From Psammoneis japonica (taxonomy: Eukaryota): a stretch of 64,000 nucleotides of DNA. Each line of letters starts with the position of its first letter. Position 1 is the stretch's first letter. Positions 1,125 to 62,490 of this stretch are shown here, one piece after another. Below the pieces are notes generated by a model. The model searched no databases. It saw nothing but the letters and a program-made list of their open reading frames with translations, and had not been told where the DNA came from. The position numbers were made by a program, and so were the translations under genes. The stretch is from assembly GCA_008632985.1 (NCBI GenBank), contig QPGO01000019.1, positions 558,001 to 622,000 on the forward strand. Reading direction: 5' to 3'.

Positions 1125-1849
1125 GATACCTCGTGCGTTGCTCTTTGGAAAGTTCATTTGTCAAGCTCTCATTCTGGGATGCATCCAACATTGTCATGAA
1201 CTGTTTTGCTTGCTTGGAGTAAGGAAACGTCATTGCAGCGTGCGTGCTTTGGATATATCTGTTTCCAAAATGCCGCCACGCCTTTTCTTCCAATGTGAAA
1301 AATCGATTCGTTGGCTTGTAGCCAACGAGACGTCAAGTAGTGTAATTTGCTTATACCGTTTAGGGCTTTGAAACATGAATAGTTGTGATCCATGCTGTAT
1401 AGAGAAGTAGCTCTTGAGTTTTTGTATCACTTTGTGACGTGTCTAGTTTTCATGCAGCATCCTTTTCCAAGAGCTTCCGAGCTCTCAGCGTTATCACGGC
1501 GGCAGGCAAAAATCGAAAACAACGGAAGAGAGAATATGACGCCAAGAAGATATATTTCTAGAGTTTCACTAGACTTTGCGCCATATCCAGTATGCCATTC
1601 TATGAGACCTACTCTGGGTTCATGCAATGAACACACGACGGGATAGAAGAGAAACTAGCAGGAATCGAAATTACAAGAGTGCTGCCGATCCATAGAACGT
1701 AACAAAATAGCGACACGTGACTTTCTGTTCTTGTGCCGCTCAGACGTTTCTCGCCATGTGGCACCGGCTCCAACACAGCAAATGAATCAGCAGCACACAA
1801 CACATCTGAAAAGCAGCACACCGACGATGTGGAAATTCAAGCACATGCT

Positions 1850-3780
1850 GGGTGTGCCATCCATCTACAGACCTTGCTGTCAGTGTGCGGGTGGGGTACC
1901 CTGCAAGTGACCCTTCCTGTAACCCAGAGCTCACCTCTGGTGTCCACTTGCTTGGTCAGCCCCTCAGCTCCCGTGACTTTGCCAACTCCTTCCTCTCCAC
2001 TGCTTCCTCCACTCTCTCTGATAAAGTTGGCATGCTCCTCTCTCGCCAAACCCAAGCCCAACTTTTCAAGCACTGTTTCACTCCCTCCTCTGCTCACCTC
2101 TTTGGCACTGATTTTTACCACACTTTGATCCTGACAACCTTTTGATGCTTTCCTTTGGACATCCTCCTTCCAGGACTCTCTCCTTGCTCCTGCTCACCAG
2201 CTCCTTTGCTGTGTCACCTCCCGTGCTGACCCTCTCCCTGATCACTCCCTTGCCATCGCCTTTCTTCCTGCTCCTTTGCTTGGCAGCTTTGGCCTTCAGG
2301 ACCCCATTCTCCTGTGCTCCTTCTTCTTTGCCTCCCATGGAGTTCAACTGCTGTCTGGAGATGCCAGCCATTGCTCTCCCTCCCTGCTTCAGGCTGTCCA
2401 TGTCCTCCTGGAACAACCCTCTCACCTCTGCACAATCTTCTGCCATTGTCCTCCTGCTCCTGCCTCTGCTTCCACCCTCTCTGCTTCTCCCTTGGCTGCT
2501 CTTGTCAAGTCTGCCACTCTTCCCAGCCTGCTGCAATCTTTGTCATGGACACCAGCAGCAAGTTGTCACCACTGCCCTTGCTGATGCCCGACGCACAAGT
2601 TTTGCTGTCATCTCTCCTGTCCCCACTCACTGGCCTCCCTCTTCACTCCTTCTCCCATCACTTCCGGAGCTCTTGCCTTGCTTCTGATGCCTGTGTCATT
2701 GATGCTCAGCACAAACTCCACCTCCCCATCTTTCCTCCTTCCATTGTTGGTGCTCCCTGTCCCTGCAGTCATGCCATCCTTGATGCCTGCGGCGACCATG
2801 CCTTCTTGCCAATGAGACCACAAATCCAAACTTTCTGATGATCTCCTGAACAATCTTTTCATTGTGGCTCAGACCTTCAAGCCTCTTGCCCAGCTCTGTC
2901 ATTCCTCCAATGATGTGCACCTTGAGCCTGCAAATCTGCTCCCCACCCATCCGCTTCTCCATCCCACCAATGTCGGCATTTCTGTGCTGCCTCAAGCTTC
3001 TCTTTCTGCTCCTTCTGCTGCCACCTCATTGCCATTGACATCACCATCACTCAAGCTCCTTCTTGCCATCCTCCTGGTCTGCCCCCACCACCACCACTCC
3101 CTCCCTTTCCAGTTTTAGCTGTGAGGCACACCATTTGAGTGCAAGACTGAAGTTCCTTGGACCTTCTGCCTCTTCTGCTGATGGATCCCCAGTTGTTGCT
3201 TTGCCCAACAACAATGGCATCTTCCTTTTTCCCTTTGCTGTTGATCACCCCAGTGGTTTTGGCTTCTTTGTCCATTGCTTTCTCTTTGGCTCTTTGCTCT
3301 CCTCTGCCTGCTCCCAGCCCAAGCCTCCCTGGTCCTCCTCTTCTGACCTGTGCCACTCCAATGCTTCCTGTTCTGCCTTCCTCTGTGCCTTGATGTCTCC
3401 ATCTGCCCTTCTTTCTTCTGCTGATTTCACCTGGAATTTGCCTTTCCAGTGACCGCTTTTTTTGTCCATTGCTTTCTCTTTTGCTCTTTGCTCTCCTCTG
3501 CCTGCTCCCCCAGCCCAAGCCTCCCTGGCCCTCCTCTTCTGACACTTGTGCCACTCTGATGCTTCCTGTTCTGCCTTCCTCTGTGCCTTGATGTCTCCAT
3601 CTGCCCTTCTTTCTTCTGCTGATTTCACCTGGAATTGCCTTTCCAGTGACCCCTTTGGCAGCACCATGCACCATTCTGCCTCTCCTTCTCAATGGGTCAT
3701 CCAAACACTCGGCTGCAACCAAGTTCACAATCTCTCCATGATGCACGCCCTTTGCTTCACCTCCTCTCTCCTTGCTGACT
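1850..3780 (+). mobile_element. Degenerate 3' part of an RLE-type non-LTR retrotransposon (inverted copy of ~5450-7110)
   Basis: LTSGVHLLGQPL (end of RT), CPCSHAILDACGDHAF (zinc knuckle) and LLHPTNVGIS (decayed RPAD endonuclease motif) all match the minus-strand copy. Confidence 0.8.
3268..3651 (+). repeat. ~194-bp tandem duplication inside the LINE fragment
   Basis: ttgtccattgctttctcttt...tttccagtgacc occurs at ~3268 and ~3462. Confidence 0.9.
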
Positions 3781-3849
3781 CATCTCCCACTCCCTCTTCC
3801 AAATGCCCTGTGTCCTGCATTCTGTGACCACTCTGCTCTCCTGCTGCTG

Positions 3850-5330
3850 CAGCCACTTCCATGCATCCTTCCACCATTCCCTTCTGTTCTCAACAGGCTC
3901 TTTAAATCTGTGCTTGGTTTAAAATGATTGTGGCTGGAAACTCTGCTTCTTGCATTGCTGTGATGCTGTTCTGGCTGTTGGAAGGCATGGGACTGTGCAC
4001 TTTGATGGCTGTCTTTCTTGTGTTGGTTTGGCACACAGTGCAAGCAGTTGACTCATCATTTGAAGTGCCACATCCAAGGTGACCACCTGCTTTTCCTCCT
4101 TTGGAGTGGTTGTTGTTTCATGGTAACACCTTGCTCTGTGACAGCATGGAGTTGGGTGCCATTGGCAGTTTTTGTGTGGAACAGGATGCAGGGAGTTGTC
4201 CTGGGAAGTTCCTGTCAATCATTGGGCATTTTCCATCTCTGCCCTTGATGGCTCTCCTTTGAAGTCCCACACTGTCTTGGTCTTTTCAAAGGTCCAAAGC
4301 CTTGCAAATTGGTTTGTGTGGTGTTGCTTCACTCATGATCTTGGTGCTGTGGAGCTGCCATCCAATGCATTGTTCAAAGTGAGTTGACTGACATGGCGTG
4401 GGATTCCTGCCAAGAAACAATTTTTCATTTTCAACATCAGCAAACATTCCAGCCAATTTCTCTTTGCACAGAGCCACGGTTCTTTGGCTGCAATCTTCTG
4501 AGACTTGGACAAGTCTGAGCTGGCAGCAGTTTGTGTGCTTGGCATTGGCTCTTGGATTAGGGCAATCCACACCTGTGAAGGTGCTGAAGATTTCTCTTTT
4601 CTGTTCATTTCCTTCTGGAGTGACTTCTGGAGATGTCCGCTCTCTAAAAGTTTCTTCCAGGTTAGGACCTCAAGTGCCAATGCCAGCTTCATCACCAAGG
4701 AGCTCTTGAATGACAGTGAAAGCCTGTTTCACAATGGTTGCTGCCACTTTTAGTGGCTTTAAGGTGGGCTGTGTTGTGAGAAAGCCATTGCACCTCCTTG
4801 CACACCTGGGAGTGCAGGCATCTCCTTGTTCTGTTTCTCCTGACTCGGGTTTGGAGTTGGGAGCTCCTGTTGCACTCCTCTCTTCTTCTTGTTCCTTGTC
4901 ATCAGAGGATGTTGAGTGGTTCTTGCTTGTAAGTTGCTGAAAGGACTCATCTTCTTTCATTTGATCAGTTTCTTCAAGAGAGTCATCCAACAAGGAATTG
5001 TTGGCAAGACCAACTTGAGCAGTCTCTCCTTTGCTGTTCCTCTTCTTGTCTGAGGTTTGTTCCTTCATGTCAACACTTTTTCTTCTCATTGTTTCCTGCC
5101 ACAAGCAAAGGGTTTGCCATCATTGGAACTTGGGGCTCCACCCTTGTTTTGTCCAGTGTTCTTTTTTTCAGGTGTGTGAGTTTTGCATGGAGTTTGCACG
5201 AGACTTCCGAAGCTTGACAACCTTCCTTGGTCATCTGTGGCATTTGGGTCTTCCTCTTGTTGGATGCGTTCCATTGTTTTTCCATCTCGGCTTTTGCCCT
5301 TTTTCTTCTTGTCACCTTTGCGTGGTGAAG
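3850..5330 (-). pseudogene. Unclassified degenerate TA-depleted coding remnant between the two LINE copies
   Basis: Broken minus-strand frames (4286-4570, 4333-4698, 4670-5104) with protein-like composition and no Tyr. Family not recognised. Confidence 0.35.
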
Positions 5331-5399
5331 TGTCACTCTTTTAAGTCCAAAATTCAGAGTTAAAGAGCCTGTGCAGAGTGGAAGGGAACAGCAGAAGGA

Positions 5400-8300
5400 G
5401 GCACGGAGGCAGCTGTGGTGACAGCAGAGCAGAGTGGGCACAAAACACTGGATGCAGGGTGTTTGACCAAGAGAATGGGGGATGAAAGGGCAGGGAGAGA
5501 GGAAGTGAATCAGAGGGCGTGCACAGAGAGGTGAAGAACATTGAGAAGGAGAGGCAGTGCAACAAGTGCTGCCAAAGTGGTTGGTGGACAGGCGATGCCA
5601 CGCAAAGTCAGCTGATGGGAGGAGAGCAGATGGAGAGGACAGGGCGCAGAGAAAGGCAGAGCAGGAAGCACTGGAGTGATGAAGATCAGAAGAGGAGGAC
5701 CAGGGAGGTTTGGGTTGATCAGACAGAGGAAAATGCAGAGACAAAGAGAAAGCGGTGAGCAAAGAATTCAAGACCACCAAGGTGATCAACGGCAAAAGGG
5801 AGAAGGAAGATGCCGTCATTGTTGAGTGAAGCAACAACCAGGGATCCATCAGCAGAGGAAGCAGAAGGGCCAAGAAACTTCAGTCTTGCACTTGAATGGT
5901 GTGCCTTAGTTAAAACAGGGAAAGAGGGAGCAGGCAGACCAGGAGGAGGGCAAGAGGGATCTTGAGACATGGTGATGTCAACTGCAATGCAGTGATGACG
6001 AGAAGGAGTGGAGAGGGAGGCAGGAGGGGGAATGGAAATGCCAACATCGGCAGGGCAAAGGAGTGGATGGGCAGGAAGCAGATTTGAAGGCTCAAGGTGA
6101 ACATCAGCAGAAGAATGACAGAGCTGGGCAAGGGGCCCCAAGGTCTGGGCTGCAACAATGAAGAGGGTGTCACGGAGGCTGTTGGAAAGCTTGGATTTAT
6201 GAGCACAGCAGCAAGAGAAGGCATGATCACCACAGGCATTGAGGGCAGCATGGCCACAGGGACAGGGCACATTGACAAGGGAGGCAGGAAGGATGGGAAG
6301 ATGAAGCTTGCATTGAGCTGTGATGATGCAGGCATTGGAAGCAAGGCAAGAGCTCTGGAAGCAACAGGAACAGGAATGAAGAGGGAGGCTGGCAAGTGGG
6401 GGCAGCAGCAAAGGCAGGGAAACTTGTGCATCAGAGGGAGCATCAGCAAGGATAGAAGCAATGGCTCACTGCTGATGCTCATGACAGAGACAGCAAGCTG
6501 GGCCATGAAGAAAGGCTGACTTGACTGGGGTGGCCAGGGTGGAGGCAGAAAGAGTAGACACAGAGGCAAGAATGGGAGCGTGCTGGCAGAAAATCATGCA
6601 GAGGCACAGAGTCGAGCAAGGGTTGAGCTGGGAGGACAAAGAAAGCCAAAAGCAGCGTGGAAGGGCAACAGTGACACCTGACGGCAGTTGGACACCGTGA
6701 GATGCAAAGCGGAATGAGCAAAGAAGAGACACCATGAATGATGGAGAGAATGATTGGGAAGAGGAGCAGCATGGGATGCAGCGCAGCAGAGAAATCAATG
6801 GGTGGTGATGAGAAGAGAGTTTTGAAAGGAGGAGGTCCAAAGGAAGGGTTTGAGAGGGTCATTGGGATCATTGAAGTTGTTGACGAAAATCAGCATCAAG
6901 AAGGTGGGCAGAGGAAGGGGTGAAGCAGTGTTTGAAGAGTTGACCTTGAGTTTGCTTGTCATGAAGGTGGGTGAGAAGCATGCCAACTTTATGGGAGAGA
7001 GTCAAGAAGGAGGCAGCAGAGAGGAAGGAATTGGCAAAGTCTCAAGAGCCAAGGGGCTGGCCAAGGAAGCAAACACCAGAGGTGAGCTGGGTCATTCGCA
7101 GGATCAGACAGGAGAGAGCAGCACAGAGAGGGTTGGCCCGGGAGGGAGGAAGGGTGGGAATGGGGCTAACACCAGCAATGGAGGTGAGAATTTTAGCAGT
7201 TTCGTAGAGTTTGAGGGCAATGCCACAGGGAGCACCAAGAGTGGAGAAACGTTCAAGGAACCATGGGAGAGTGGAATGAGGAAGAAAGGCATGAGCGTCA
7301 TTGATGCAGGAGCCAACAGAGGCAGGGGAGCAGCCAGGGATGTGTTCACAGAGTTCTTGGTTAATCGGACAAAGGACAAGTGAGAGGACCAGGCTGGCAA
7401 AGACAGGACCAAGGGGGCAACCTTGAGCAAAGCCTTCTTCTTGAACAAAAGAATCCCAGGTAGAGTCGGGGCAACGGTGCCAGCAAGTGTTAAAGCTTTG
7501 GCACATGAGGTTGAAGAAAGAAAGGAGCAGACAGAAAGAGCCTCAGTGGAGGCAAGCAGGTGACAACAAGCATCATGAGAGGCCTCATTGAACATGTTGG
7601 CTGGGTCAAGAAGGAGAGCTTTGGTGGGATCAGTGGTGGAGAGGTGCCACTCAATGTTGGCATGGGTGGAGTGGATGAGGTGGTTAAGTCCACCTTTGGT
7701 GCCAATGCCAAATTGACCATGGGGAAGAAGGCATTCCGTGAAAGCAGAAGCAAAAAGGGTCACAATGATGGAACCGGCAATGCATCAAAGAGTGGTCCCA
7801 ACACCAATGGGGTGAAGCTCATTGAGGTTGTTGGCATCTTTGTGAAGTGCAACAAAGCAGTTTGAGGCAAACAAGGGATGGATGGAAAGAGGAACAGTGC
7901 CATGGAGGAGCAGAAGAATGAGCTCACAGAAAGAGGGCAAATGAGGACGTTGAGAATCTCCTGCAGGAGTTTTGGCAGAGCAGAAGGTGCAGGACCTGAA
8001 AAGGTCAGTGGAATCAGCAAACACCGCAGCAGCAGTGCCAGGTTTGCACTTGAAAAGGGCAGAGAGGAGAGCATCAGCGGAGAGCTCAATGGGCTCATTG
8101 TCAAAGGAAGAGGCAGAGTGGATTGAAGGAGCAACAGGCACATTGGAAAGGTGCAACAGAGTGGAGCCATTGAAGAGCAGAGGAGTGCCAATCACTGACA
8201 TCACGAAAGGAAGAGAGAACAATGTCAGAGTTGAGGGCAGAACGGGGAGCATTTGCAAATGATTGCAAAGATGTGCAGAAGAGAGGCAGGCACATTGGCT

Positions 8301-9900
8301 GTGATTGCACAGTGTCTGTAGACATGCAAACCAGTGGCATCAAAGAATGCAGCAGGTGCTTGAGAAAGAGCGAAGCGAGGGTGCTCCTGGTGAAGGTGGC
8401 TGCGCACAGCAGCAGGAAGAGAAGAAAAGCATCTGCAGATGAAGGAAACCAGGAGCAAAAGGGACCGGTCAGTGGGGCATGGGTTTCAGTGGGTTCCACG
8501 AGGTGATGATGTTGCGGAGAGAGTCAAAGTTGGGGGCTGCAGCCTGGACAGCAGCTTCGTACAAAGGCATCCAGTCAGAGAGATGACCTGGGCAACAAGT
8601 GCCAACAAAGGCATCAAGGGTGTCCAGAAGTTCCATCTTGTGCTGGGACTGCTGAGGAGCAACAGAGTCATTGGACTCAGTCTGCATGATTTCATCAGGA
8701 ACATCAGCTGGCTGTGCAGGGGCATCGGGAGAGGGATGGGGACGCTTGGACGGAGGGGGCTTGGCAGTCGGAGAGCGGGCTTGCGGGCAAAAATGTGGAA
8801 GAGAGCCAGCAGCTGGAAGCAGGTCTTGGGGTTCAGGGAGCTGTCAGTCTTGGGCAAGCAGCTCAAGAGCACTGCAGGAAAAGGAGTTGCAAGAAGGAGC
8901 AGTTGGCTGAAGAGCTGCAGAGGCGCAGGACTGGGAAACTGCATCATCAGCAAGAGAAGCATCTGACGTAGAAGCAAGGAGGTCAGAGGGAAAGCCCAGA
9001 TGGTTGTGCAGGTTGGCATCCAAAAGAGCAATGGTGCACAGAGATGGAAAGAACAGAAGCTTGCATTTGATTGGAAGGGCATCATGAGCAGAGAAAATGG
9101 GAATGAGAGACCGGAGATTTGAAGAAGAAAGAAGGCGGTTGATGCCAGACTGGGTCAAGGGAAGCCTGAGAGGGTCAGAGATGACCACAACCATGTTGTT
9201 TTGACACAGGACATAAGTTCAGAGAGAGCATTGCAGGTGGCAGAGAAGTCAGCAGGATCAGGGAAGGGGACAACAGTGGCGGAAGTGCCCAAAATAGAAA
9301 ACGGGGTGGGCGGAGCATTGGGCGGGTTGGTGGTGTGAAGAAAAGCATTCCGGGCGGCATCGGAGGATGCAGAGACACAGAAAACCCAAAGAGCATGGCA
9401 GCATGACTGAAAAGAGTTGGCAGGATGCTGAGATGGCTGAATGCCAACGAGATTTGAGAAAGATAGAGTAGTTTCGGAAGGACTGAAGGATGGGTTCTGG
9501 AGATCTTGCCAACGAGAGAAAAGAATGAAGGTGAGAGAAGAGAAACTCGCAGGTGCAGCGGGAAGCACCACAAAGGGCAGGGGTCAGACCAGTGAGAACA
9601 CCATGAGCCTTCTCATCAAAGGAATTACAGGCAGGGATCATAAAGGTGCAATGCCGAGCCCAAGGGTTGTCCACAACAGGGGTCGTCGAAAAGTCGGGAT
9701 GAAGAAAGTTGGAGAAGGAACTGGTGGAGCGGAACGCAGTAAATGAAGTGGGACGTGGGATGGAGGTGCCACTTTTGAAGGAGAAAGGAAAGCGCTTGGT
9801 TGCGGAAGGAAAGGAAATCAAAGGTAGAACCTTCTGGCACCACTGGATGGAGGGTGACATGGAAGTAGGAGGTGCGATTTTTTTAGCTTGGTGTTAGTGC
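5400..9900 (-). mobile_element. Near full-length degenerate non-LTR retrotransposon with RT and restriction-like endonuclease (CRE/R2-like group)
   Basis: Motifs in order: His/Cys finger-like segments, QFGIGTKGG, LDPANMFNEAS, EGFAQGCPLGPVFASLVL, CINDA (from YIDD), CPCGHAALNACGDHAF, LLCPADVGI..VDIT. Many stops and frameshifts. Confidence 0.85.
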
Positions 9901-10071
9901 GTGCTATTCGCGTTCTCTTGTCGCACCAAACCGCTGGCTCTTTTTGGCGCTTGTGGCGAGTGCGGCGAGAAGTGATTTCTCCTCCAACTTCCTCCAGCAC
10001 AGTTCATCTTGTGCGAGCACTTGTGTTCTGAATTCGGGTGTAGCTCTTTTGACAAAACGCCGCAGCAAAGA

Positions 10072-41490: not shown

Positions 41491-41539
41491 CTGGGCAACA
41501 TGCATGAGTCCTGCTGATGTCTTCATGGCACGAGCCCAC

Positions 41540-51500: not shown

Positions 51501-51950
51501 GAGAAAGACGGCGAGGAAAAACTCTTCACCTTGAACCTCTGGCAAGGTGGTCTTCACTTGGTCAAACCAATGTGCCACATCATTGAATGGTTTGTTCGCA
51601 TTTGTGCAGCCGATGACACCACCACCCCACTGTCCATTTCCAAAGCAGCTGGGGGCAAGGCAAAGCTTGTCACTTTGATGGAAATCAAGAACAACATGTG
51701 CAAGGTTCTTGCCTCAAAAGTCTGTCACCTTCACTGTGCAAAAGAAGAGAAGGCGCTTTCACACTGGCATGCTAATTCTCTTCAGGTTGGAGCTTGCATG
51801 ATGCTCTGCCAGATGAACTTCAGTGGGCAGTCCATCTGATGGCTGTTGCAATGGAGGTCCATGGCATGGCACACCTCAGGAACTCTGCTGTCTTGGCAGA
51901 TCACCAATGCAGAGCTCTTGACCACTCTGCGCCCATGCCTCACCTCTTGC
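45600..51950 (+). mobile_element. Degenerate tyrosine-recombinase retrotransposon (DIRS order)
   Basis: Gag-like frames ending in a Cys/His finger (to 47899); RT remnants (VKDSKRGF, DDATGAHR); RNase H (GIGDASGLGGG); recombinase C-terminus HANSLQVGAC..I.WLLQWRS (from HSLRxGA..RWxS). Confidence 0.8.
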
Positions 51951-52239
51951 AAATTTTGATTTTTTTAAAATTTCTAAAATGTGTTTTGTTTCATGCACTG
52001 TGTGCTTTGCATTTGTTCCACCATGTCCAATCTGAACAACAGCAGTTGGCCTTTGGTCGTGTTTCTTTTTGACACCACTCTTTGCAGCGGCCCTCACTTT
52101 GTGCCGAACTTGTCATCCTCCTTGCATGGATGCCTTTCTTCTTCTGCAGCATGCTTTCCACTTTGGGTTCATGCTCTCTGCTCATTGCCTGATCTTGGGC
52201 TTCAAGCTGTGGTTTAAATTCCTTTTTTTCTGGCTGGCT

Positions 52240-52965
52240 GTGGTGCCTCTGATGACATGGGTGTGCACACTGCACTTCGCACAATGCTGCGTGCAGCCAG
52301 ATGGCATGTTCGCACAGTGTTGGGGAACAAAATGGATGGAACCAGATCTGCAAATTTGTTCCCTGTTTTCCTGGCCACTGTCTCAGCAGCACCACACAAG
52401 TGCACATGCTTGTGTGCATGTTTCCACATTGGACATGTTTGTGCATTCATTGTTGCGGCCATTCAGCAAAGCCAGCGCTGCATCATGTCATCGATGTTGC
52501 AGCCAAGCCGAAGTGGTGGCAGGAAATCTGTGATTCTTGGCACCAAGACGGTGGGCCCAGCACAAGGAGAGAACACCTTGTGGGTGGCCATGCTCTTGGC
52601 AGAGTCACCACGCAAGCGACAGCAGCACGCAGCAGGAGGCAGACAGCCAGACGATGACGAGAGGCTGCCCCAGCTCCCATCATTGTGTTTGGTGGACTGC
52701 CGGTGATGATGGGATCAGAGGATGAGTGGACCCAACATGGGCCGGCAATGCTGAAAAATTCCCACCCTGCCCAGCCCTCTGTTCACACAGTGTTGGGGAA
52801 CAAAATGGACAGCACCAAATTCGAAGATTTGTTCCCTGTTTTCCCAGCTGAGCTGTCTCAGCAGCACCACACGAACACATGCTCGTGTGTGTTTCTATAC
52901 ATTAGATGCATCCGTGCATCGATTGTTGCGGCCATTTGGTAGCTTGCACTGTGTCATGTCATCGG
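52240..52965 (-). repeat. Right arm of the modular inverted repeat
   Basis: Reverse-complement similarity to 41540-42470, with two internal subunits (~52310-52495, ~52780-52965). Confidence 0.8.
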
Positions 52966-53247
52966 GATAGGGCCTCTAGTAGCTAGAGCCAAGCCAGGCT
53001 CTCTCTACTCTGTAAAGTAGCTAGCAGTAGAGTAGAGAGAGCGGGAATCTGCGATTCTTCTCCGAATTCATTGTATGTCACATACCAGTACCGTACATAC
53101 ATATGGCAGACAATTACCGTACTGATGACGTGTCACGATCTGGCATCAGCGCAGGCGAGCACGCTAGCCCTATGTACCATACGCCGCTGAGCGCTCTGAG
53201 CACACAAAAAGCACGATGCCACCACGCTCAGTTTATTTCGACCGACC

Positions 53248-54762
53248 ATGACAATTACACCCACGACGGCAAAAATGAGAATGACGAATAACAAGAAGCA
53301 AGAGAATGAGAAAAGTCTCTCGGGTTGTCCCTACTCGACAAGTGTATCGAATTCATCCTCCAAGGACTATTCAACACTTCTTCAGGAGTGCCCGGCGTTT
53401 CAGAAGAACTCGGGTTGCCCCTTCAAGAACTCGACGTCTCCTAAAGAGATTCAGCAAGAGCTTTTGAAGGTACCACCGTCTCACTTGGAATCCAAGGAAA
53501 GTCCCTTTCACAAGGCACTGGAGCAGCTGCATAAAGTGGCAACTACAGCGGAACCGGCCTCGCAATTCGAACTGATGGGCGGGTGTCCCATGCAAACATA
53601 CCATCCTGACCAAGACGTTCCGTTTACACAAGCGCTCGAAGAGTGGTCCCTAGCATCCATCATGGCAAAGATGGCTAACGATCTGGAAAAGAACTTGGAA
53701 GATAGTGACGAAGAAAACAATCATGATATTGTGAATAAGCGGAGTATAATAATGTCGGAAGAGTCGTCTCATGTGCCCGTCTCTTCCCCTCGTTCTGAAA
53801 AGGTTAGTTTGGCTCATGCTCTCAAGACTGGCACAGCCAGTGCACACGAGGCTGCTGAAGACGTTCACTTTGTACGCAACTTTATTCGAGGTGATATTGA
53901 TCGGGACTTGTATCGAGAGTTGGTGATGGATTTGTACTTTGTCTATCAGGCACTTGAGGATGCACTAGACAAGCACGCACCGACATATTTCGGCTCTTGT
54001 CACTTTCCAAACGAGTTGGAACGTACACCAGCCTTGTTGGAGGATGTTGATTTCTGGCATGGATCGACAGATTTGCCATCCATGAGTGAGGCGACTCGCG
54101 ATTATGTGGACCGTATTCGCGTCCTGGCGGACACGGAACCGCTCTTGCTGTTGTCTCATGCTTATACACGTTATCTGGGTGACTTGAGCGGTGGCAAGGT
54201 TTTGGCACGTGTAGCACGCAGGTCACTACATCTTGACAGAAAGGAAAAGGACGGTCTTGCCTTTTATCACTTTGATAACATTTCGAGTGCCAAACTCTTC
54301 AAGGACAAGTATCGTCAAGCGTTGGATGATTTGCCGCTCGACAAATCACAAGTGTCGGCGCTCGTCAAGGAAGCTAACATTGCCTTTCTATTGAATATGC
54401 GAATTTTTCAAGAATTGGATGTCAAGGCTGGTATTCAACCCAGACTACCACCGCTGGAAGAGTCACTGGCGGCGTTTATGCAAGACGGAACGACAAGTTC
54501 TGCGACTTCCGAAGCGGAGTGTCCGTTTGCAAACAAGCGCAGCAGTAACATTGACGTCAAGGTCCCACCAAATAATGAATGTCCCTTTGCCAAGACAGAT
54601 GTAGCCTCAACCGTACTAAAACCAAAAGGAAAGTGTCCGTGGCCCTTTATTTTGGCGCACGACCCGCAAGAGGGCTTGCGCCAATGGCAGACATGGCTGG
54701 TGTTGGGTGCGATTCTTTGTTGGTCTTGGTCCCGCTTTGTTGCCAACTATGTACAGAATTGA
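53248..54762 (+). CDS. Heme oxygenase with multiple Cys-Pro motifs and C-terminal membrane anchor
   Basis: LKTGTASAHEAAE (proximal His) and HAYTRYLGDLSGG (distal helix); hydrophobic C-terminus. The start may be a nearby downstream ATG. Confidence 0.92.
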   Translation: MTITPTTAKMRMTNNKKQENEKSLSGCPYSTSVSNSSSKDYSTLLQECPAFQKNSGCPFKNSTSPKEIQQELLKVPPSHLESKESPFHKALEQLHKVATTAEPASQFELMGGCPMQTYHPDQDVPFTQALEEWSLASIMAKMANDLEKNLEDSDEENNHDIVNKRSIIMSEESSHVPVSSPRSEKVSLAHALKTGTASAHEAAEDVHFVRNFIRGDIDRDLYRELVMDLYFVYQALEDALDKHAPTYFGSCHFPNELERTPALLEDVDFWHGSTDLPSMSEATRDYVDRIRVLADTEPLLLLSHAYTRYLGDLSGGKVLARVARRSLHLDRKEKDGLAFYHFDNISSAKLFKDKYRQALDDLPLDKSQVSALVKEANIAFLLNMRIFQELDVKAGIQPRLPPLEESLAAFMQDGTTSSATSEAECPFANKRSSNIDVKVPPNNECPFAKTDVASTVLKPKGKCPWPFILAHDPQEGLRQWQTWLVLGAILCWSWSRFVANYVQN

Positions 54763-55370
54763 ATTTATTTTAGAAATAGCTTCTTGCAAGGATCACTGTT
54801 TAGCATGAGGCCGCAGAGTAATTCTTTTTGTCACATTCGGACTTGATTTCACAAGCGACCTGACCGAACTTGCGTATAAATAAAAGTTACAGTGGTAATT
54901 TCTCCTCAGTTTCGAAGGTACGCTCAAGCACACTGATCTGATCCTCCCGATTTAGATACTCTGATGACCGTGATATATTGTTCTCGAAACTGAATACCCA
55001 TTCTTGTTGGCGACAAATCGCAATCACTTACATTTAAAGTGTTTGCACTGATGTTCACAGCAATCGGCAGCGCTGCCACAATGCGGGCTTTCTATTGCTG
55101 TGCGACACACGGTCGCATCGACGCATAAGCTTGCCTTTTTATTCCACTGGCAAAATTCTTCTTCTTGAACGCACTTTTGCGCATCAGATTGACCTAAGCA
55201 ACTTTGGCCGACAGTGGACGAAGACGTCCCGTAAGGAATAGGGTGGGCGTCACACTAGAGATTCGGGAGCTGTTCTGCAAGGTTCGCCTGGTAGGCGATT
55301 CAATCGGAGAAAATGTTGGACTGGTGGATGGCATTTTGGTTGGGTGTGAGCTGGGATGAAAGAAAAGAGT

Positions 55371-58300
55371 CTAAGATGGAAAAGATGTCGCCTCAGGATT
55401 TGAGCTGGGAAAACTGCTCGGGGTAGAGGTAGGATGATTGGTCGGAGCGATACTCGGGGCTGTCGTTGGGCTGGACGATGGGGCGTCACTCGGCGATGAT
55501 CTGGGTACCATTGGAGAAATTGAGGGACTAAAAGATGGATAGCGACTGGAAAAGGGGCTTGGCTGTGTTGTAAGTTCAGCTGTTGGCGCGAAAGATGGAC
55601 GATGGCTTAGGAACATGTTGGGTGGTGTACTTGGGGCAAAGGAAGGGCTACTGGACGGAGAGTAATGACCAACGGATGGACTGTTGGATGGAAAGAGACT
55701 TGTTGGTGGAATTGAGGGCAAAGGTTTGAAGGTTGGGGCGTCACTCGGTTCGGCTGAAAGATCATCTGCTGTTGGTACATCACTAGGAACCCTACTCGGG
55801 ACTGTAGGTGGAGCAGTTGAGGATACCGTTGAGGGCATTACAGATGGCACATTGCTTGGTTCGAATGATGGCAATTTCGAAGGTACATCACTCTGGGCTA
55901 TACTTGGTACCGATGATGGAGCAAAGGATGGTACGGCTGAAGGTGTAGAGTATGGCACATTGCTTGGTTCGAATGATGGCGTTGTCGAAGGCATATCACT
56001 CGGAGATAAAGTTGGCACTACTGGCGGAGCAAAGGAAGGTACCGCTGAAGGTTTCAAGGATGGCACATCACTGGGTTTGGACAATGGTATTGTGGAAGGC
56101 ACATCGCTCGGAGCTACACTTGGCACTGCTGAAAGAGTAACGAAAGTTACGGCTGAAGGTGTCAAAGATGGCACGTCGCTGGTTTCGGACGATGGTATTA
56201 CCGGTATGGAAGGCACATCACTCGGAGCTAAACTTGGTACTGATGTTGGATCAAAGGAAGGTACGGCTGAAGGTGTCGAGGATGGCACATTGCTTGGTTC
56301 AAATGATGGCGTTGTCGAAGGCATATCACTCGGAGATACACTTGGCACTACTGACGGAGCAAAGGAAAGTACCGCTGAAGGTTTCAAGGATGGCACATCA
56401 CTGGGTTTGGACAATGGTATTGTGGAAGGCACATCACTCGGAGGTGCACTTGGCACTGCTGAAGGAGCAACGGAAGGTAAATCGCTGGGTTCAGACGACT
56501 GAGTTGTCGAAGGTACATCACTCGGGGCTGCACTTGGCACTGCCGATGGAGCAACGGAAGGTACTTCCGAAGGCGTCAAGGATGGTACATTGCTGTCACT
56601 CGGAGCGACACTTGGTGCTGCTGAAGGGATAGAGCCGACAATATCGTCCACCGATATGAAGTCAAAGGTGACCGCACCATCAGGTTCGAATTTGATATTT
56701 GTAATTGTGTGACCGGTTTCATATATGTTTCCATTTTGATAGGAATCCGTGTTCGGATAGAGACGATTGCCACATAACTCTCCACAACCTGTTGATGGAC
56801 CAAGGCTCAAGTTGTTTTGTCCATCCCACACATCTCCACCGTCTCCGCGGTTTCGGTTCCGCTCTAAGTCATAGTTTCCGTCCGCTTGTAGAACTGCGAC
56901 ACGGTAATGGTTTCCGTTTTCTGGCCAACCCGACTGAAATGGATGTCCTTCGGCTCTGTGACCAACTCGCGGCCGGCCCCCTTTACTGTCATCGATTTTG
57001 AATACAATGAGGCCGGATTTGGGAAGCCTTCCATCAAAGCCAATCGCTTGCCGATTTTCAATAAACAGATACTCTTTTTCTGGATATCCTAAGTCAACCC
57101 TGTAATACTCACTGAAAGAAAATGAAGGCCTTAAGTTGACTCCACGTTGATAGGAATTCAACGGCTTCACGTTGGCCCACCCCAGCATATTTTTACACCA
57201 GGGATCGAGCGACGGGGGATAGAGCATGGACCCTTCGAAACCCCAGACATTCCCCATGGTACTGAACGATCCGATTCCCTGCCCTCCACCGTCTAGGTCG
57301 TAAAGGTCTGGAAGACCAAATAGATGCGATATCTCATGTACCAATGTACCAATTCTCAGTATAGAATCGCCCCTGATGTCCCAAAATGCTGGCACGATAA
57401 CAAAATTCTGAACTATTGTCCCATCACTTGAAGTCCATCCATTAGATGGGAGCCACCATTGAAATGAAAAAATACGATCTGCGTTACTGGCTCCATAAGC
57501 ATCCGTTCCACCATGTTCTGCACCATAGCCAGAGTGAATAACGGTCAACAACTCAATAACGCCGTCTCCATCGTTGTCGAACTCCGCAAAATTGAATCCT
57601 GTTCTGTCCAACTGTTTCATTGCATGTTTTATCACTTTCCTTATCTTTTGTGACCGACCACTTCTTCCGTTTGCAGTAAATGCCTCGGTGTAGTTCAAAG
57701 CTACCCATGGTACAACAGTGCTGTTGAGGTCGATGCGGCCTCCGCTGTTTGTTGAAAAGTAGTCCCTGACACTCCCTGTTGGACTCAACTCATCGTGTGG
57801 CAGGTCGCTGTTTAGCAACGTCCCAAAGTCTTCTGTGCTTGGTCGATTCGTTCGTTCAATGTGATCTGAAAAAATTACTGGGACCACCAAGTTCTTCACT
57901 TCAATTTTTTCATGGGTGAGATCCCCCTGGTGTTTGTCTTGTTTTTGCTGAACAAGGTTGAGTGCTGTTGGAGGTCCCTTTTCGCAAAACTCTCCACATT
58001 CCAATCTGATGATATCCGGTGATGCGTGCTCTCCTTTTCTAATACCTGCACTTTCTGGGTCTGTTTTGCCTACAGGTAGCTCGTGCAAGATTTTCAGCTC
58101 ACCGTTGGAGGATTGTTTACAATAAAACCAGTTGTTAGTCTCCCGCGGAATGAGCGATTCGTCAGTTATAGTGCCATTGTAAGAATCAAGCTTCTGTGGT
58201 GGTTTCACACTTTTTTCAGGAGCCACAGTGTAGCCATTTTCATCTTCGAACCAGTAGTAGGCGGCATTTCCTCGAATGAACAACTTTCCTGTGGACGAGC

Positions 58301-58406
58301 CGTCAGATTGTATTTCTGTAAAGGACGCCGGCGAAGCCGTAATGTCGGCAACAGTAAGAACAGGAAAGATACAGAGAAGCAGATAAAGAAGTCTCCTCTT
58401 GTTCAT
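55371..58406 (-). CDS. Secreted M6-family (immune inhibitor A-like) metalloprotease with long Pro/Ser/Thr repeat stalk
   Basis: Signal peptide from ATG at 58406; FDNDGDG, HSGYGAE, IGTLVHEISHLFGLPDLYD, EYLFIENRQ; PSxVPS repeats. Confidence 0.9.
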   Translation of the reverse strand: MNKRRLLYLLLCIFPVLTVADITASPASFTEIQSDGSSTGKLFIRGNAAYYWFEDENGYTVAPEKSVKPPQKLDSYNGTITDESLIPRETNNWFYCKQSSNGELKILHELPVGKTDPESAGIRKGEHASPDIIRLECGEFCEKGPPTALNLVQQKQDKHQGDLTHEKIEVKNLVVPVIFSDHIERTNRPSTEDFGTLLNSDLPHDELSPTGSVRDYFSTNSGGRIDLNSTVVPWVALNYTEAFTANGRSGRSQKIRKVIKHAMKQLDRTGFNFAEFDNDGDGVIELLTVIHSGYGAEHGGTDAYGASNADRIFSFQWWLPSNGWTSSDGTIVQNFVIVPAFWDIRGDSILRIGTLVHEISHLFGLPDLYDLDGGGQGIGSFSTMGNVWGFEGSMLYPPSLDPWCKNMLGWANVKPLNSYQRGVNLRPSFSFSEYYRVDLGYPEKEYLFIENRQAIGFDGRLPKSGLIVFKIDDSKGGRPRVGHRAEGHPFQSGWPENGNHYRVAVLQADGNYDLERNRNRGDGGDVWDGQNNLSLGPSTGCGELCGNRLYPNTDSYQNGNIYETGHTITNIKFEPDGAVTFDFISVDDIVGSIPSAAPSVAPSDSNVPSLTPSEVPSVAPSAVPSAAPSDVPSTTQSSEPSDLPSVAPSAVPSAPPSDVPSTIPLSKPSDVPSLKPSAVLSFAPSVVPSVSPSDMPSTTPSFEPSNVPSSTPSAVPSFDPTSVPSLAPSDVPSIPVIPSSETSDVPSLTPSAVTFVTLSAVPSVAPSDVPSTIPLSKPSDVPSLKPSAVPSFAPPVVPTLSPSDMPSTTPSFEPSNVPYSTPSAVPSFAPSSVPSIAQSDVPSKLPSFEPSNVPSVMPSTVSSTAPPTVPSRVPSDVPTADDLSAEPSDAPTFKPLPSIPPTSLFPSNSPSVGHYSPSSSPSFAPSTPPNMFLSHRPSFAPTAELTTQPSPFSSRYPSFSPSISPMVPRSSPSDAPSSSPTTAPSIAPTNHPTSTPSSFPSSNPEATSFPS

Positions 58407-59982
58407 TCTAAACACACTAAACAAACGCAATGGCCTCCTTACTTGACTTTGTGAGAAAAAGAAAAGGGAGGTTTTCTCCTTTCCTCAATTTGAAATTTCA
58501 ACTTGTATGTGGGTTCGTGCTTCCGCGACCTAGAAATATTCATGGATATTAATATCGGGGGATTTAATATTGTTAGTTATAAGTTTATCAATGACATATA
58601 TTGTAAAATAATACTATAGGAATTATTCACCATTACATTTTTTGTATATTATAATGCTATGAATAAAGAAAGAAAAGCAAAAAATCCAACACAAGGATGA
58701 TTCCTGTTCATGTTGATGTTCCTTGTTTCTTTCAGATCGGTGCATGTTGCATTTTCAATTTGGAGCCCAGAGAGGCTTCCTGCTCGACAGTAGATTCGAA
58801 AGGCACGTGATAATTCCAACAGTAGCTATCCGGGTAAGTGCATGGTGCAGCGGGGTTTCTTTCCATTCTGAATCGAAATTGACGGCATGAGAAAATTCGT
58901 CCCTACCGACGACAACGGCGGTGGGGTTGGGATCCATGATGAGTAAGTACGGAGGAGAGAGGGATCACCATGGGTTCAAGGTGTCCATGGGCGGACAATA
59001 GTCCTCGCTTTTTCTCGCACGTCTCGATGGTCATGACGTCAAGTGCCATGTGTTTGGACGGTAATACGGCATCAATGGACAGGAGCAGTATTCCGGCAAA
59101 AACGCTTCAGCGAGCGCTCTTGATCACAAGTTCAAAGTCACAAAACGGACACGATCCCCAAATTGTTGCAACTGAGACTCCTCCAAACAATGTGAGTGCT
59201 CAGTTTGGAAGGTTTGAGTGCCGCTCGTGTTTGGAAAATCCTTTTTTGCCCACCCTCTGCATGGAAAGCAATGACGGAACGGAGCGAATATGTATCCACC
59301 AGCGACAGCGGCGAATCTTTGATTTTGTATATTCTTATCCGGAGAATTCTGCTCTCGTAGAAAAAGAAGAGAATGTAGTGATCTTTGAACCCTCAAGCCT
59401 TTCCCGTACTGCATACCAAGAAGACAATCACTGAGGGCGATCAGCAGGACTAGACTTGTTGCTTTGAGCGAGAAGAATGACAACATTGGTAGACCAAGTT
59501 GATCTGCATGTCTTCTTGCGAAAGAGCAAGTAAACTTGTACAACACGAGGTGTTTTACAAGTGCCTTGACAGTAATTTAAAAGAAGAACTTATACGGCAT
59601 TAGATTCTCAAACTACTACATCTCCCCGAGCAGTTAGCGACCGTGACTGACTGTCGTCACAGGTTAGGTCTCGTTTACAAGGCCATCATCATGTGTTTCG
59701 TTGTTGGGCAGCTTTCATATGCAGCGATCTGCGCTCCTCGTACTGTAAGGGACTCAACTGCAAACACTCTGGTCATGGATCTGACCAGAACTCCTTCCTC
59801 TACGGGCAAGTCGCAATCCCTACTTTTTCTCTGCCTGCACAACAACAAAAAAAATGGAACTAGAACACTTGCTTTCAATGGACATAAGAAGCACAGTACT
59901 GCAGCATCTTTCCTTCATCATCGTGGGACCTGCCGACCTTAAGCTTCTCTTATCCAGCCTTCAGTAGTTCTGGACAATACAG

Positions 59983-60654
59983 CTATTGGTCACTACTGCC
60001 CAGAAAGTTCATGGTTCTCTTTTCCCATGCCTTTGGTTTGTCCTTGAATTTTTCAATACGTTTCGACTGTATAGGTAATGACTGGCAAAAATCCTCCACG
60101 ACCTTGCTTTTGACGGACCAATACACGAGGGAAAAGGGTCCGTAAAGTGTTCCAAAATATATGGGATTATTCAGTATTTCCACGTTGGCATGAAGAGCTT
60201 CAAACGCCGAGATTACAAACAAGAACCCAAACGAAATCAAGACTGCACAAAAGGGGTATGCAGGAGCCAATTTGAGGGTGGACATTGCTACCCGTAAGGC
60301 AAAATCAGCCTTGTGCAACGTGCCCTTTGCGACTCGTTGACAGTCAAAGTACAGGCAAAAAACGTAAGCTGTACCGACAAACATTATTTTTGGGACACGA
60401 CGAATCCACGCCAGTATTCGATACTCTAGCACTCGAAGATTACTTATAACGTCGTGGACGTTGAAGAAACCATAGAGTCGCTCCAACAAGTTGACGGTCA
60501 CGACAATCACCAACGCAATTCGTATGATTCTGGATCGAATAAAGAGACGTCTCAACCCAGGTAAACCCTTTTCTCCACGAGACGAGGAAGAATATAGCAG
60601 ATACTCTGTGGCCACATAGGTAAGGAAGAGGGAATTGACAATTTCGGCCATCAT
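59983..60654 (-). CDS. Hypothetical multi-pass membrane protein
   Basis: 223 aa ATG-initiated ORF with several hydrophobic segments and normal TA content. Confidence 0.7.
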   Translation of the reverse strand: MMAEIVNSLFLTYVATEYLLYSSSSRGEKGLPGLRRLFIRSRIIRIALVIVVTVNLLERLYGFFNVHDVISNLRVLEYRILAWIRRVPKIMFVGTAYVFCLYFDCQRVAKGTLHKADFALRVAMSTLKLAPAYPFCAVLISFGFLFVISAFEALHANVEILNNPIYFGTLYGPFSLVYWSVKSKVVEDFCQSLPIQSKRIEKFKDKPKAWEKRTMNFLGSSDQ

Positions 60655-60729
60655 GGTACAGGTTGTGTTGTCTTTAGTCTTTAGGCTGTATCTCTCAATC
60701 GGCTACCGGGCGGTGTTACTTTGTTTTTT

Positions 60730-62490
60730 CATCATCGTCTTGCAGTCTGTCACTGCGGACGGAGAATGGACCATGCCACGGCATGTCGTGCGTGCGTGCC
60801 GTGCGTGCTGTGCGCACGCATGATGCAAAGTTTGCAGTTTGCAAAGAAGTTTGTGGGCAAGATTTTTCTAACAAGCCATTTTGCAAAACGCAGCTTGTCA
60901 GCTGCGAAGCAGCAAACACCCAGCAAACACCTGGGAGTTGCCGGAAATGACGAAATTTTCATTTTTCCTTGTTTTTGTCTGCGTTTTCGAACACCACTGT
61001 CTTTGGAATTTTTGGCGCAGTCGACTTTGCAGAAGTTTGAGTTTTCAGCATTTTTTGCTCAGAAAAATGCAACAGATCTCATTTTGTGATTGGCCAGGTT
61101 TTTTGTTGAATTCCACCAAGGTTTGCACCACACAGGTGGCTTGTGTGGCACAGCGGGGGTGCGCCTTTGCCCCAGCTTGCTTCAGCTCTAAAAACTTCGA
61201 TTTGAGGCATTCACGATGAGCAGCTGTCTTGGGTTGCTTGAGGCTGGAAAAAGCAGTGAGACTGGCTTCAGTTTGTTTCTCAGCTTGCTTGTGGGTGGTT
61301 TCCATCTTGCCAAAGATGGTCCCTCCCCTTCTGGTGTGCTCTGCGCCTCCCCCCACCCCTGCCTCTGTGCTGCTTTTGCTCTTCAGCACAGCCTGTGTCT
61401 TCTTCGTCTTTGACCTCACATTTTGAGATGTTGCAAAATGGCGCCCCTCCAGAGTTTCAAATGGTTTTTTGTGACTGCACATGTGAGTGACACACGCGCA
61501 AGAAGTGTCTTTGTTCTTCTTGCAGCAGCAGCCTGGCCCCTCTGGTGTTTGTTCTGCTGCAAACCACATGGTCATTGAATCACCACCCTGCACTTGCTCA
61601 ATATTTTTTCAAATTAATCAGCACAATGCATTGCAGCCAATGAATTCCCATCAATTTGTGTTGATCACAGTTTTCCCCTCTGTTTTGATTGCAGCACACA
61701 ACTTGCTGCTGCCGCCGCCACCACCACACTGGGGCACAACACAAACCGGCCGGCGCCTTGATGCACAATTTGGTTGACATGGCCTGGGCTCACTTTCCCA
61801 AGCCACAGCATTGCCAATGGGCTCACGACTCATGCACATCATGTGGCCAGCTGGGCACACATCTGCCATCTCGGGCGAATGCCTCCCCCCCTCTGACCTG
61901 GCTCTGCTGCACCTGCACACACCTCCTCTCGGACAAAAAACCATTTGTGTGCATCTGGTGCATCAGGTGGCAGCAGCACAGTTTCTGGTGCCTCTGGTGT
62001 GTCCCCTGTTGACACAGTGAACAAAGCAAATGCATTTGCCAATGACGCCAATCATGTCAAAGAATGCAGGCCCCCCCTGGCCCACACAAAGCCAGCGGCA
62101 AGATGGAGATCTCTCCAAAGAAGACGACAATGAAGCCATTCATTTTGAAATGTGTCATGGTGACAACTCATTCCAGATGTCAGTTTCCGATGAAGATCAT
62201 TCGACACCACCAGTGCCCTCTTGGAGAATGAATGTGGACGCACCATGCAGTCAGATGGTGTTGGTTGGTGCAGTGCGTGCGACGATGATCAGTCCTTCCG
62301 TCTGTCGTTGGGAAATCCGCGACCACGAACGCCCGCCTTGCACAAACCAACGCGAGCCCCGATCGATAGCCACGCACCCCGCGCAAGCACGCCGCAAGCA
62401 CGCCGCACGCCGCACCACTCGAAGATCGACGAGTGCATGCAGGATCTGCATGATGCGATCGTTGTTGTCCATCGCGTCGCTTCTTGTGTC
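60730..62490. other. Small TA-depleted island, unclassified (possible transposon remnant)
   Basis: Abrupt loss of TpA between two intact genes; no recognisable domain or terminal repeat. Confidence 0.6.

Follow-up and report, generated by a model that had tools for sequence, protein, structure and literature searches.

What process could strip one dinucleotide, TpA, almost completely from long stretches of a genome and leave the genes between them with an ordinary supply of it? The question is raised by a 64,000-nucleotide stretch of the Psammoneis japonica genome (contig QPGO01000019.1, positions 558,001 to 622,000 of the forward strand; hereafter the window, in whose own numbering all positions are given). 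Four islands in the window nearly lack TpA (TA) and are rich in TG and CA. The answer that we consider probable is that these islands of transposon and repeat DNA have undergone a targeted, DNA-level conversion of TpA to TpG or CpA that ran close to saturation, with decay of CpG alongside, and that spared the adjacent genes.

The window was scanned with a sliding 1-kb profile and a two-state segmentation on TA positions. Four islands were delimited, described here by the observed/expected ratios (o/e) of TA and CG:

1709-9625: TA-poor island 1, TA o/e 0.08, CG o/e 0.18; unclassified repeat DNA with a gradual right edge
13687-28805: TA-poor island 2, TA o/e 0.089, CG o/e 0.37
41476-52895: TA-poor island 3, TA o/e 0.059, CG o/e 0.26; inverted-repeat ends
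60718-62493: TA-poor island 4, TA o/e 0.049, CG o/e 0.63; unclassified

Inside the islands there are 167 TA in 36,232 bp, compared with 1,206 in the remaining 27,768 bp. The observed counts for islands 1 to 4 (37, 82, 43 and 5) lie below everything seen in 200 mononucleotide shuffles, which had means of 466, 917, 733 and 103 and minima of 420, 862, 676 and 84. The longest run free of TA measures 1011 bp in the islands and 257 bp in the normal segments. Six of the eight island edges switch TA density within about 30 bp; at the right edge of island 3, for example, there is not one TA over 52215-52896, and thereafter one every 5-40 bp. Segments between islands have a TA o/e of 0.55-0.65 and a CG o/e of 0.83-1.04, with a lower TA o/e of 0.36 at 9626-13686. 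The original prediction, made from the sequence letters of the window, had described four sharply bounded TA-poor, TG/CA-rich islands separated by genes and spacers with ordinary TA; profile, segmentation and shuffles bear this out, and the coordinates agree within about 400 bp. Most of its borders stand. Island 1, however, ends near 9625 at a gradual edge, and island 2 becomes TA-poor only from 13687, although the long terminal repeat (LTR) of its first element begins at 13292.

Strand-symmetrised dinucleotide ratios were compared between the islands and the rest of the window. TA stands at 0.08 in the islands versus 0.60 in the rest, CG at 0.31 versus 0.87, and TG (equal to CA) at 1.70 versus 1.21. 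AA/TT (1.16 versus 1.14) and AT (0.86 versus 0.93) are essentially unchanged, and AG/CT is up merely 1.13-fold. The deficits of TA (0.0388) and CG (0.0267) add up to 0.0655 of all dinucleotides and match the excess of TG+CA (0.0623) within 5%. TA is depleted 8-fold, and GC content is 50% in the islands and 46% elsewhere. The target is TpA, not WA (W, A or T) or ApT.

The direction of change can be read from island 2, where the first element, Copia element 1 (13292-19344, minus strand), is a complete Ty1/Copia insertion with TG...CA LTRs, a perfect 5-bp target-site duplication and an integrase upstream of the RVT_2 reverse transcriptase (RT). Its parts, including open reading frames (ORFs), are as follows:

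13287-13291: left copy of the target-site duplication, CCGCA
13292-13647, minus strand: 3' LTR with TG...CA ends, only partly TA-depleted
13648-18986, minus strand: internal region, with Tyr codons erased
13693-14520, minus strand: RNase H ORF
14327-15583, minus strand: RT ORF (Pfam RVT_2, 2.9e-29)
16187-17671, minus strand: gag/protease/integrase ORF (Pfam gag_pre-integrs, 1.4e-08)
18987-19344, minus strand: 5' LTR
19345-19349: right copy of the target-site duplication, CCGCA

An LTR element inserts with two identical LTRs. Those of Copia element 1 now share 90.6% of their letters as written, and 98.9% once purines and pyrimidines are each collapsed into one class. Their 361 aligned bases hold 7 doublets in which TG in one copy faces CA in the other and 7 differences of TA against TG or CA; the remainder are 6 differences of CG against TG or CA, 4 other transitions and 2 transversions. 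A TG opposite a CA means that an ancestral TA was changed independently, on opposite strands, in the two copies. Of 23 TA sites inferred for the ancestor, 14 now read differently in the two LTRs, and at 7 of these the copies have gone opposite ways.

The coding regions carry the same mark. Tyrosine is encoded by TAT and TAC only, and an alignment of the Copia element 1 RT with 80 homologues shows 111 of 157 conserved columns kept but a conserved Tyr in only 1 of 12. The lost tyrosines became 5 His, 5 Cys and 1 Ser, whereas other conserved residues persist (Phe 5/5, Trp 5/5, Gly 14/15); the catalytic YVDD reads CVDD. Tyr makes up 0.2% of the RT ORF, versus a median of 3.8% among the 120 homologues listed. 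When RT and RNase H are taken together and compared with 120 homologues, 19 Tyr columns correspond to 7 Cys, 5 His, 2 Tyr and 5 other residues. Both products of TpA conversion are represented in these 7 Cys and 5 His, as they are in the gains of RTGY (+8.5 per 1000) and RCAY (+8.2 per 1000; R, purine; Y, pyrimidine). One of the 120 listed homologues of the RT, P0210, has itself only 0.84% Tyr with raised Cys and His, and could be a hypermutated copy from another sample.

Related elements retain their TA. A metagenome scan gave 523 pattern matches, of which 374 were confirmed as related Copia loci; the best 80 of these have a TA o/e of 0.35-0.75 and none is TA-depleted, in a scan that favours intact copies and is uninformative on how common hypermutation is. 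The lineage is therefore not natively TA-free. Taken together, the LTR doublets, the Tyr losses and the TA-bearing relatives show that functional, TA-containing ancestors were mutated as DNA, after LTR duplication and on both strands. The LTR spectrum and the replacement of Tyr by Cys or His thus uphold the core of the original prediction: at TpA, A:T pairs have become G:C on either strand, in transposon or repeat DNA only, in a direction opposite to the repeat-induced point mutation (RIP) of fungi and by a process distinct from CpG decay.

TpA loss is strongly dependent on the flanking bases. Context survival, calculated as the frequency of a tetranucleotide in the islands relative to normal DNA, ranks as follows:

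ATAT 0.008; ATAC/GTAT 0.009; ATAG/CTAT 0.037; ATAA/TTAT 0.045; GTAC 0.045
GTAA/TTAC 0.118; CTAC/GTAG 0.119; CTAG 0.164; CTAA/TTAG 0.318; TTAA 0.543

Hardly any RTAY is left, and about half of TTAA persists. The Copia element 1 LTRs follow the same ranking: sites changed in both copies are of the ATAT, GTAC, CTAT, TTAC and TTAG types, and sites kept in both are mostly CTAA, GTAG and CTAC. Survival ranking alone does not separate a rule of a purine before T from one of a pyrimidine after A, and the island and normal tetranucleotide counts by themselves did not balance when the -2 effect was parted from the +1 effect. The homologous coding DNA of 80 related Copia elements (240 kb) was used as a proxy for the ancestor. 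Relative to this proxy, Copia element 1 has changed, per 1000, by -33.4 in TA (37.7 to 4.4), +16.0 in TG, +26.3 in CA, -3.0 in CG (46.1 to 43.1) and +1.5 in AA. In the mixed contexts, the products are in excess on the strand in which A is followed by a pyrimidine (YTGY 90 versus 51.8 expected, RCAR 124 versus 102; total about +60, standard deviation about 12), whereas on the opposite strand they are close to expectation (RTGR 67 versus 74.7, YCAY 88 versus 73.5; total about +7, standard deviation about 12). Sorted by 3' neighbour, the product gain per 1000 is 20.2 for C, 12.0 for T, 6.0 for A and 3.9 for G, and TAG/CTA are among the best-surviving contexts. Tyr codons following a pyrimidine became Cys rather than His by 6 to 1, and those following a purine became His rather than Cys by 4 to 1 (Fisher p=0.07). 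On these counts a target of 5'-TAY-3' (A to G), equivalent to 5'-RTA-3' (T to C), is probable but not proven.

A second process has left its trace in the same DNA. CpG o/e is 0.18-0.63 in the islands and about 0.87 outside, which indicates that cytosine methylation and deamination have probably been at work there as well. Deamination of 5-methylcytosine at CpG also yields TpG and CpA, but it cannot remove TpA; in the younger Copia element 1 about 90% of TA is gone and CpG is only slightly reduced, so the TpA process must be much faster than CpG decay.

Conversion of TA to TG or CA never makes a stop codon (TGA arises only from TAA, already a stop) and it removes TAA and TAG. For this reason the islands are full of open frames although their proteins are dead: 26 of the 36 stop-to-stop ORFs of at least 200 amino acids in the window lie in islands, on both strands. 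Since no stops are created, inactivation must come from missense change (losses of Tyr, Ile and Met) and from the loss of signals that contain TA.

The accuracy of the sequence was checked with reads. Long-read base-callers err systematically at modified bases. Logan contigs of a public run (X1, containing 0.96 of sampled words) were compared with the window over 40000-59999. X1 contigs match the window with 0 differences over 41120-41871, which spans the left edge of island 3, and over 46602-48446, 48448-50183 and 50157-52342; the contig over 41842-45112 has 4 differences and 1 gap. X1 word depth is 62-69 in island 3 and 59-62 across the flanking genes. The library type of X1 is unrecorded and the run may be the same data as the assembly; exact 31-mer contigs at even depth nevertheless exclude both noisy-read miscalls at modified bases and a foreign contaminant. 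Raw reads with TA at these sites would, according to the original prediction, speak against it; the X1 contigs instead reproduce the island at gene-like depth and across one of its edges. Of the 264 X1 contigs on this interval, 151 are 90-95% alike to the window, which fits diverged repeat copies elsewhere in the genome. Fixed single-base differences between island 3 and X1 contigs were noted at 42310, 44095, 44210, 44332 and 46378, and only that at 46378 (A>G) falls at TpA. A second run (X2, kind unrecorded) covers the heme oxygenase gene beside island 3 and leaves the island uncovered; it gives no evidence on silencing.

Beyond Copia element 1, the islands contain the following:

1928-3915, minus strand: left arm of an inverted repeat in island 1 (partner 5350-7088)
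5350-7088, plus strand: right arm of the inverted repeat in island 1
19568-26112, minus strand: second, older Copia-like element, with LTR-like direct repeats at 19568-19758 and 25955-26112
26113-28805: rest of island 2, unclassified, with short internal repeats at 28194-28641
About 41778-42487 versus 52219-52640: terminal inverted repeats of island 3, with 12 TG/CA doublets between the termini
48595-51531, plus strand: degraded RT-RNase H gene in island 3, as a read-through frame with stops written as X

TG/CA doublets recur in each of these repeat pairs. The LTR-like repeats of the second Copia-like element, which has a weak RVT_2 match (E 0.004) in the ORF at 20302-21393, show 3 of them with 3 differences of TA against TG or CA. 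The arms in island 1, about 2 kb each and arranged head to head, share 73% of their letters as written and about 88% when purines and pyrimidines are collapsed, with 55 doublets, and the pair 52307/52780 in island 3 has 7. One strand of the island 1 repeat is strongly purine-rich, and a read-through transcript of it would form a long hairpin RNA.

The protein of the island 3 frame (48595-51531) has 281 homologues among representative clusters at E<=0.001, the best at 1.9e-49, and belongs to a family of about 900 amino acids (proteins P0258-P0407). Pfam searches gave no family for the read-through frame and none shared by more than one member among 13 and then 30 homologues; a PDB profile search with the protein family gave no match, and an Atlas search with the protein gave only weak RVT_1/RVT_3 leads. 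The AlphaFold model of one homologue, P0260 (predicted local distance difference test score 83.1, predicted template modelling score 0.81), matches in Foldseek the reverse transcriptases of cauliflower mosaic virus, foamy virus, Ty3 and Moloney murine leukaemia virus, with E from 1.7e-08 and 90 matches at E<=0.001. On the strength of this model, the gene is identified as the degraded RT-RNase H of an unnamed retroelement family. It keeps 0 of 4 conserved Tyr, and there are also replacements of Arg by His, Cys or Trp, which are the signature of CpG decay. A DIRS-like identity is plausible for the element, given an RT-RNase H and inverted ends, although a tyrosine recombinase was not found by Pfam in the ORFs or the read-through frame of island 3.

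In island 1, 47 ORFs of at least 90 amino acids gave no credible Pfam match, and its read-through frames gave no PDB sequence match. Across the islands, no LINE (long interspersed nuclear element) or Gypsy integrase domain was found in any of the 184 ORFs of at least 90 amino acids or in two read-through frames. The inventory of transposons offered by the original prediction can thus be kept in part: two Copia-type elements stand (RVT_2, gag_pre-integrs) and the DIRS-like element is plausible but unproven, whereas the LINEs and the Gypsy-like integrase are unconfirmed, with no such domain in those 184 ORFs and two read-through frames.

Between the islands lie long intron-free genes encoding ARM-repeat, beta-propeller, heme oxygenase, M6 peptidase and SET-domain proteins, together with several repeats; Rfam and tRNA scans of the window returned 0 RNA genes. 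The features in normal DNA are:

9976-12588, plus strand: ARM-repeat gene, intact, between islands 1 and 2
29073-31568, minus strand: beta-propeller gene with normal TA and no relative above 34% identity
36087-36710, plus strand: ORF with a run of Ser codons (AGC repeats)
36924-37175, 37260-38125 and 40834-41149: tandem repeats with units of 84, about 220 and 158 bp, in the normal-TA spacer beside island 3
53200-54762, plus strand: heme oxygenase gene with normal TA, adjoining the sharp right edge of island 3
55371-58484, minus strand: M6 (immune inhibitor A-like) peptidase gene with 108-bp internal repeats at 55771-56587 and a PT-repeat tail

For the heme oxygenase domain, 531 relatives were found at E<=0.001; among the 120 listed, all of the roughly 14 that are named by organism come from diatoms, at no more than 68% identity. 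On this evidence the host is an ochrophyte, most likely a diatom, lacking a close sequenced relative in the collections searched, and is not Bigelowiella. In the ARM-repeat gene TA amounts to 0.28-0.34 of the expected level at each of the three codon positions, about half the level of the other genes, and CpG is normal; the other host genes mostly have 0.43-0.74 of expectation by codon position, with two lower values (0.34 and 0.27). Its low TA may be leakage of the TpA process or the gene's own composition. Repeats outside the islands lack the mark: copies of the spacer tandem repeats are 80-99% alike and show no TG/CA doublets, and a satellite pair in normal DNA shows 0 over 636 aligned bases.

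Has such a process been seen before? The original prediction knew of no description, but TpA-only hypermutation of the same kind is reported in a 2026 preprint that followed mutation-accumulation lines of Bigelowiella natans (Mettrop et al., bioRxiv 10.64898/2026.01.13.699255). According to its text, 231 of 302 nuclear single-nucleotide mutations fell in integrated giant-virus and virophage regions, and 230 of these 231 were transitions of A to G or T to C, every one of them at TpA, with rates about 1000-fold above background and only some lines affected. The same text reports that TpA-depleted, CpA+TpG-enriched coding sequences are enriched in reverse transcriptase and DDE domains. It proposes an ADAT2 homologue as the enzyme, cites ADAT2 of amphioxus and Trypanosoma as DNA-editing relatives, and states that ADAR favours a 5' U (bioRxiv 10.64898/2026.01.13.699255).

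The two cases are alike in that only A to G or T to C changes at TpA occur, in foreign or selfish DNA beside normal genes and against a GC-to-AT bias. They differ in host and target, a rhizarian with giant viruses and virophages in the preprint and a stramenopile (diatom-like) with retroelements here, and in degree, since the preprint gives a Rho of 0.45 for the region derived from nucleocytoplasmic large DNA viruses, whereas depletion in the window is near saturation (TA o/e 0.05-0.09). The evidence also differs in kind: de novo mutations caught in real time in B. natans, a fossil signature in sequence here. Neither the flank rule (RTAY far more than YTAR, probably TAY) nor CpG decay is mentioned in the parts of the preprint text available to us, which likewise make no mention of diatoms, stramenopiles or flanking context. 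Literature searches aimed at diatoms returned no description of TpA hypermutation, and the accessible part of a Phaeodactylum mutation-accumulation paper (PMC6604790) mentions neither TpA nor transposons. As far as literature searches show, this kind of hypermutation had a single earlier description, and the window adds a second case from a phylogenetically distant host.

How might the process work? In the mechanism that we propose, A:T to G:C transitions at TpA would be made on either strand, almost to saturation, in transposon and repeat DNA. The action would be in situ, on integrated copies, as the LTR evidence and the B. natans experiment suggest. Inactivation would resemble RIP in its effect, removing Tyr codons and TA-containing signals (TATA, AATAAA) without creating stop codons. 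The edited strand would read 5'-TAY-3', with A going to G, which would fit a DNA adenine deaminase of the TadA/ADAT2 type; the opposite strand allows an equally good description, T to C at 5'-RTA-3', because TpA is its own complement and A to G and T to C are indistinguishable from sequence. In the natural target of TadA/ADAT2 the edited A lies between U and C (UAC, in the anticodon loop), and engineered TadA base editors edit DNA. Enzymes of the TadA/ADAT2-ADAT3 family make inosine from A, read as G, and this activity fits the T-A-pyrimidine preference put forward here; DNA editing by the natural enzymes is, however, weak or disputed, and no such gene lies in the window. We infer a possible link of this family to the islands. 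No responsible enzyme of any kind is encoded within the 64-kb window, and neither is the targeting signal, which may be homology, small RNA or chromatin.

Likeness to RIP, as known from Neurospora and other fungi, goes beyond the outcome. Both act at the DNA level through transitions bounded to regions of selfish DNA, leave genes largely intact and mutate copies independently. RIP, though, turns CpA/TpG into TpA by acting on C, creates stops and lowers GC, whereas here TpA is destroyed at A:T pairs, no stops arise and GC is raised. RIP is triggered by duplication and hits all sizeable repeats; in the window the island copies are diverged repeats, but a stretch present in about 20 copies and short tandem repeats are unaffected. 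RID, DIM-2 and the premeiotic timing of RIP are fungal. Fungal RIP was rejected as a candidate for the islands, its direction being opposite to an 8-fold depletion of TA and a GC content of 50% versus 46%.

Several observations weigh against the mechanism as proposed, or against parts of it. The interval 40000-40666 has an X1 word depth of about 1370, compared with about 65 elsewhere, corresponding to some 20 copies, and yet has ordinary TA and CpG; with the unaffected tandem repeats, it implies that repetition alone is not the trigger. Of 42 TA copies inferred for the Copia element 1 LTRs, 24 survive, compared with about 7 expected from context rates across the islands, so that the internal region is the more depleted. 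As to the motif, the single-copy LTR differences leave TAY and RTA tied, with 2 fitting and 2 contradicting each, and in the non-Copia islands the product ratio of 1.29-1.50 points in the same direction but overlaps that of normal segments (1.10-1.55). Islands 1 and 4, without domain matches, are not classifiable as transposons. Finally, the sharp edges (6 of 8) are easier to reconcile with editing confined to elements, either ahead of integration or under the guidance of homology, than with spreading along chromatin, and all classified targets are retroelements, which leaves room for editing of free complementary DNA (cDNA).

Among the alternatives, one that keeps an in situ, TpA-specific process but moves the chemistry to thymine or to a modified base is unlikely. 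Here TET/JBP-type oxidation to 5-hydroxymethyluracil or 5-formyluracil would be responsible, or else the decay or faulty repair of another TpA-directed modification. 5-Formyluracil is mutagenic and mispairs with G. The TAY rule is an RTA rule for T to C, the two changes being indistinguishable, and the islands bear the mark of cytosine methylation (CpG o/e 0.18-0.63), so base-modifying enzymes would act there. Against it stands the likeness of the TAC/TAT preference to UAC, the target of TadA/ADAT2. X1 contigs show ordinary G:C at the changed sites, as expected of fixed mutations under A or T chemistry alike.

A second alternative places the editing before integration: retroelement cDNA or double-stranded RNA would be edited in the cytoplasm or particle, as by APOBEC3 or ADAR, and copies would arrive already TA-free. 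Sharp edges that coincide with element ends where these are known, the retroelement nature of every classified target and the stronger depletion of the Copia element 1 internal region than of its LTRs all speak for it. ADAR and APOBEC3 are animal families, and ADAR prefers a 3' G. They resemble the process described here in making deaminase-type transitions with a nearest-neighbour preference that disable retroelements, but they act on RNA or single-stranded cDNA before integration and leave a signature on one strand, whereas in the islands both strands are changed and the LTRs differ. At one and the same ancestral TA, the two Copia element 1 LTRs have changed independently and often in opposite ways (7 doublets, 7 single changes), a pattern that RNA-level editing cannot produce and cDNA editing could produce only once both LTRs exist. 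Such editing, on complete double-stranded cDNA shortly ahead of integration, would suit the sharp edges and the TA retained in the LTRs. The two strands are affected to a similar extent (7 Cys, 5 His; RTGY +8.5 and RCAY +8.2 per 1000), and a 3' G is favoured least, which is the reverse of ADAR. In B. natans, moreover, the signature is reported to arise de novo in long-integrated, single-copy viral DNA. We accordingly regard pre-integration editing as decidedly improbable. ADAR-type RNA hyperediting fixed by retrotransposition was rejected, the LTRs differing at 14 of 23 TA sites and a 3' G being least favoured.

Recruitment of an error-prone polymerase of the pol-eta type, making A to G changes at WA during repair of methylated or damaged transposon DNA, was among the candidates named by the original prediction but is very hard to sustain. 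TA does count as a WA motif and methylation of the islands is probable, but the other such motif, AA, is untouched: AA/TT o/e is 1.16 versus 1.14, AG/CT is up only 1.13-fold, and against the Copia baseline AA has changed by +1.5 per 1000 while TA has changed by -33.4. The near-complete conversion of RTAY is also unlike patchy repair synthesis.

That no mutation process is involved, the islands being an assembly or base-calling artefact, foreign DNA or TA-avoiding elements, is scarcely credible even if X1 may be the assembly's own data, given exact 31-mer X1 contigs with 0 differences over several kb at gene-like depth and across an edge, conserved Tyr (YVDD included) turned into Cys or His, which marks the copies as dead rather than adapted, LTR doublets that require an ancestral TA, and relatives with a TA o/e of 0.35-0.75.

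The proposal of targeted TpA conversion in integrated repeat DNA has several practical consequences. The sharper motif (RTAY erased, TTAA spared, probably TAY) can be used for testing candidate enzymes, and a natural, context-specific A:T to G:C editor of DNA would interest base-editing research. For annotation the islands are a warning, as hypermutated elements lose Tyr, escape Pfam models and yield many long spurious ORFs. The RT family of island 3, with 281 clusters and no Pfam model, could merit a family model of its own.

Compared with what the preprint text on B. natans describes, the host lineage, the retrotransposon targets, the saturation-level depletion, the flank rule and the property of creating no stop codons are new. 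A bolder reading, which we put forward tentatively and hold to be less likely true than false, is a 'reverse RIP': a TAY-specific DNA adenine deaminase system, aimed by sequence rather than by the spread of chromatin and acting in situ on integrated selfish DNA, common to stramenopiles and rhizarians, and an old, widespread genome defence of eukaryotes. If true, it would inactivate without stop codons and leave long false ORFs in all six frames. The two cases together suggest that TpA hypermutation is a widespread way to disable selfish DNA. It extends beyond a single species and beyond viral insertions, and may serve as a general defence of the genome across the SAR lineages (stramenopiles, alveolates and rhizarians), which include ecologically dominant phytoplankton.

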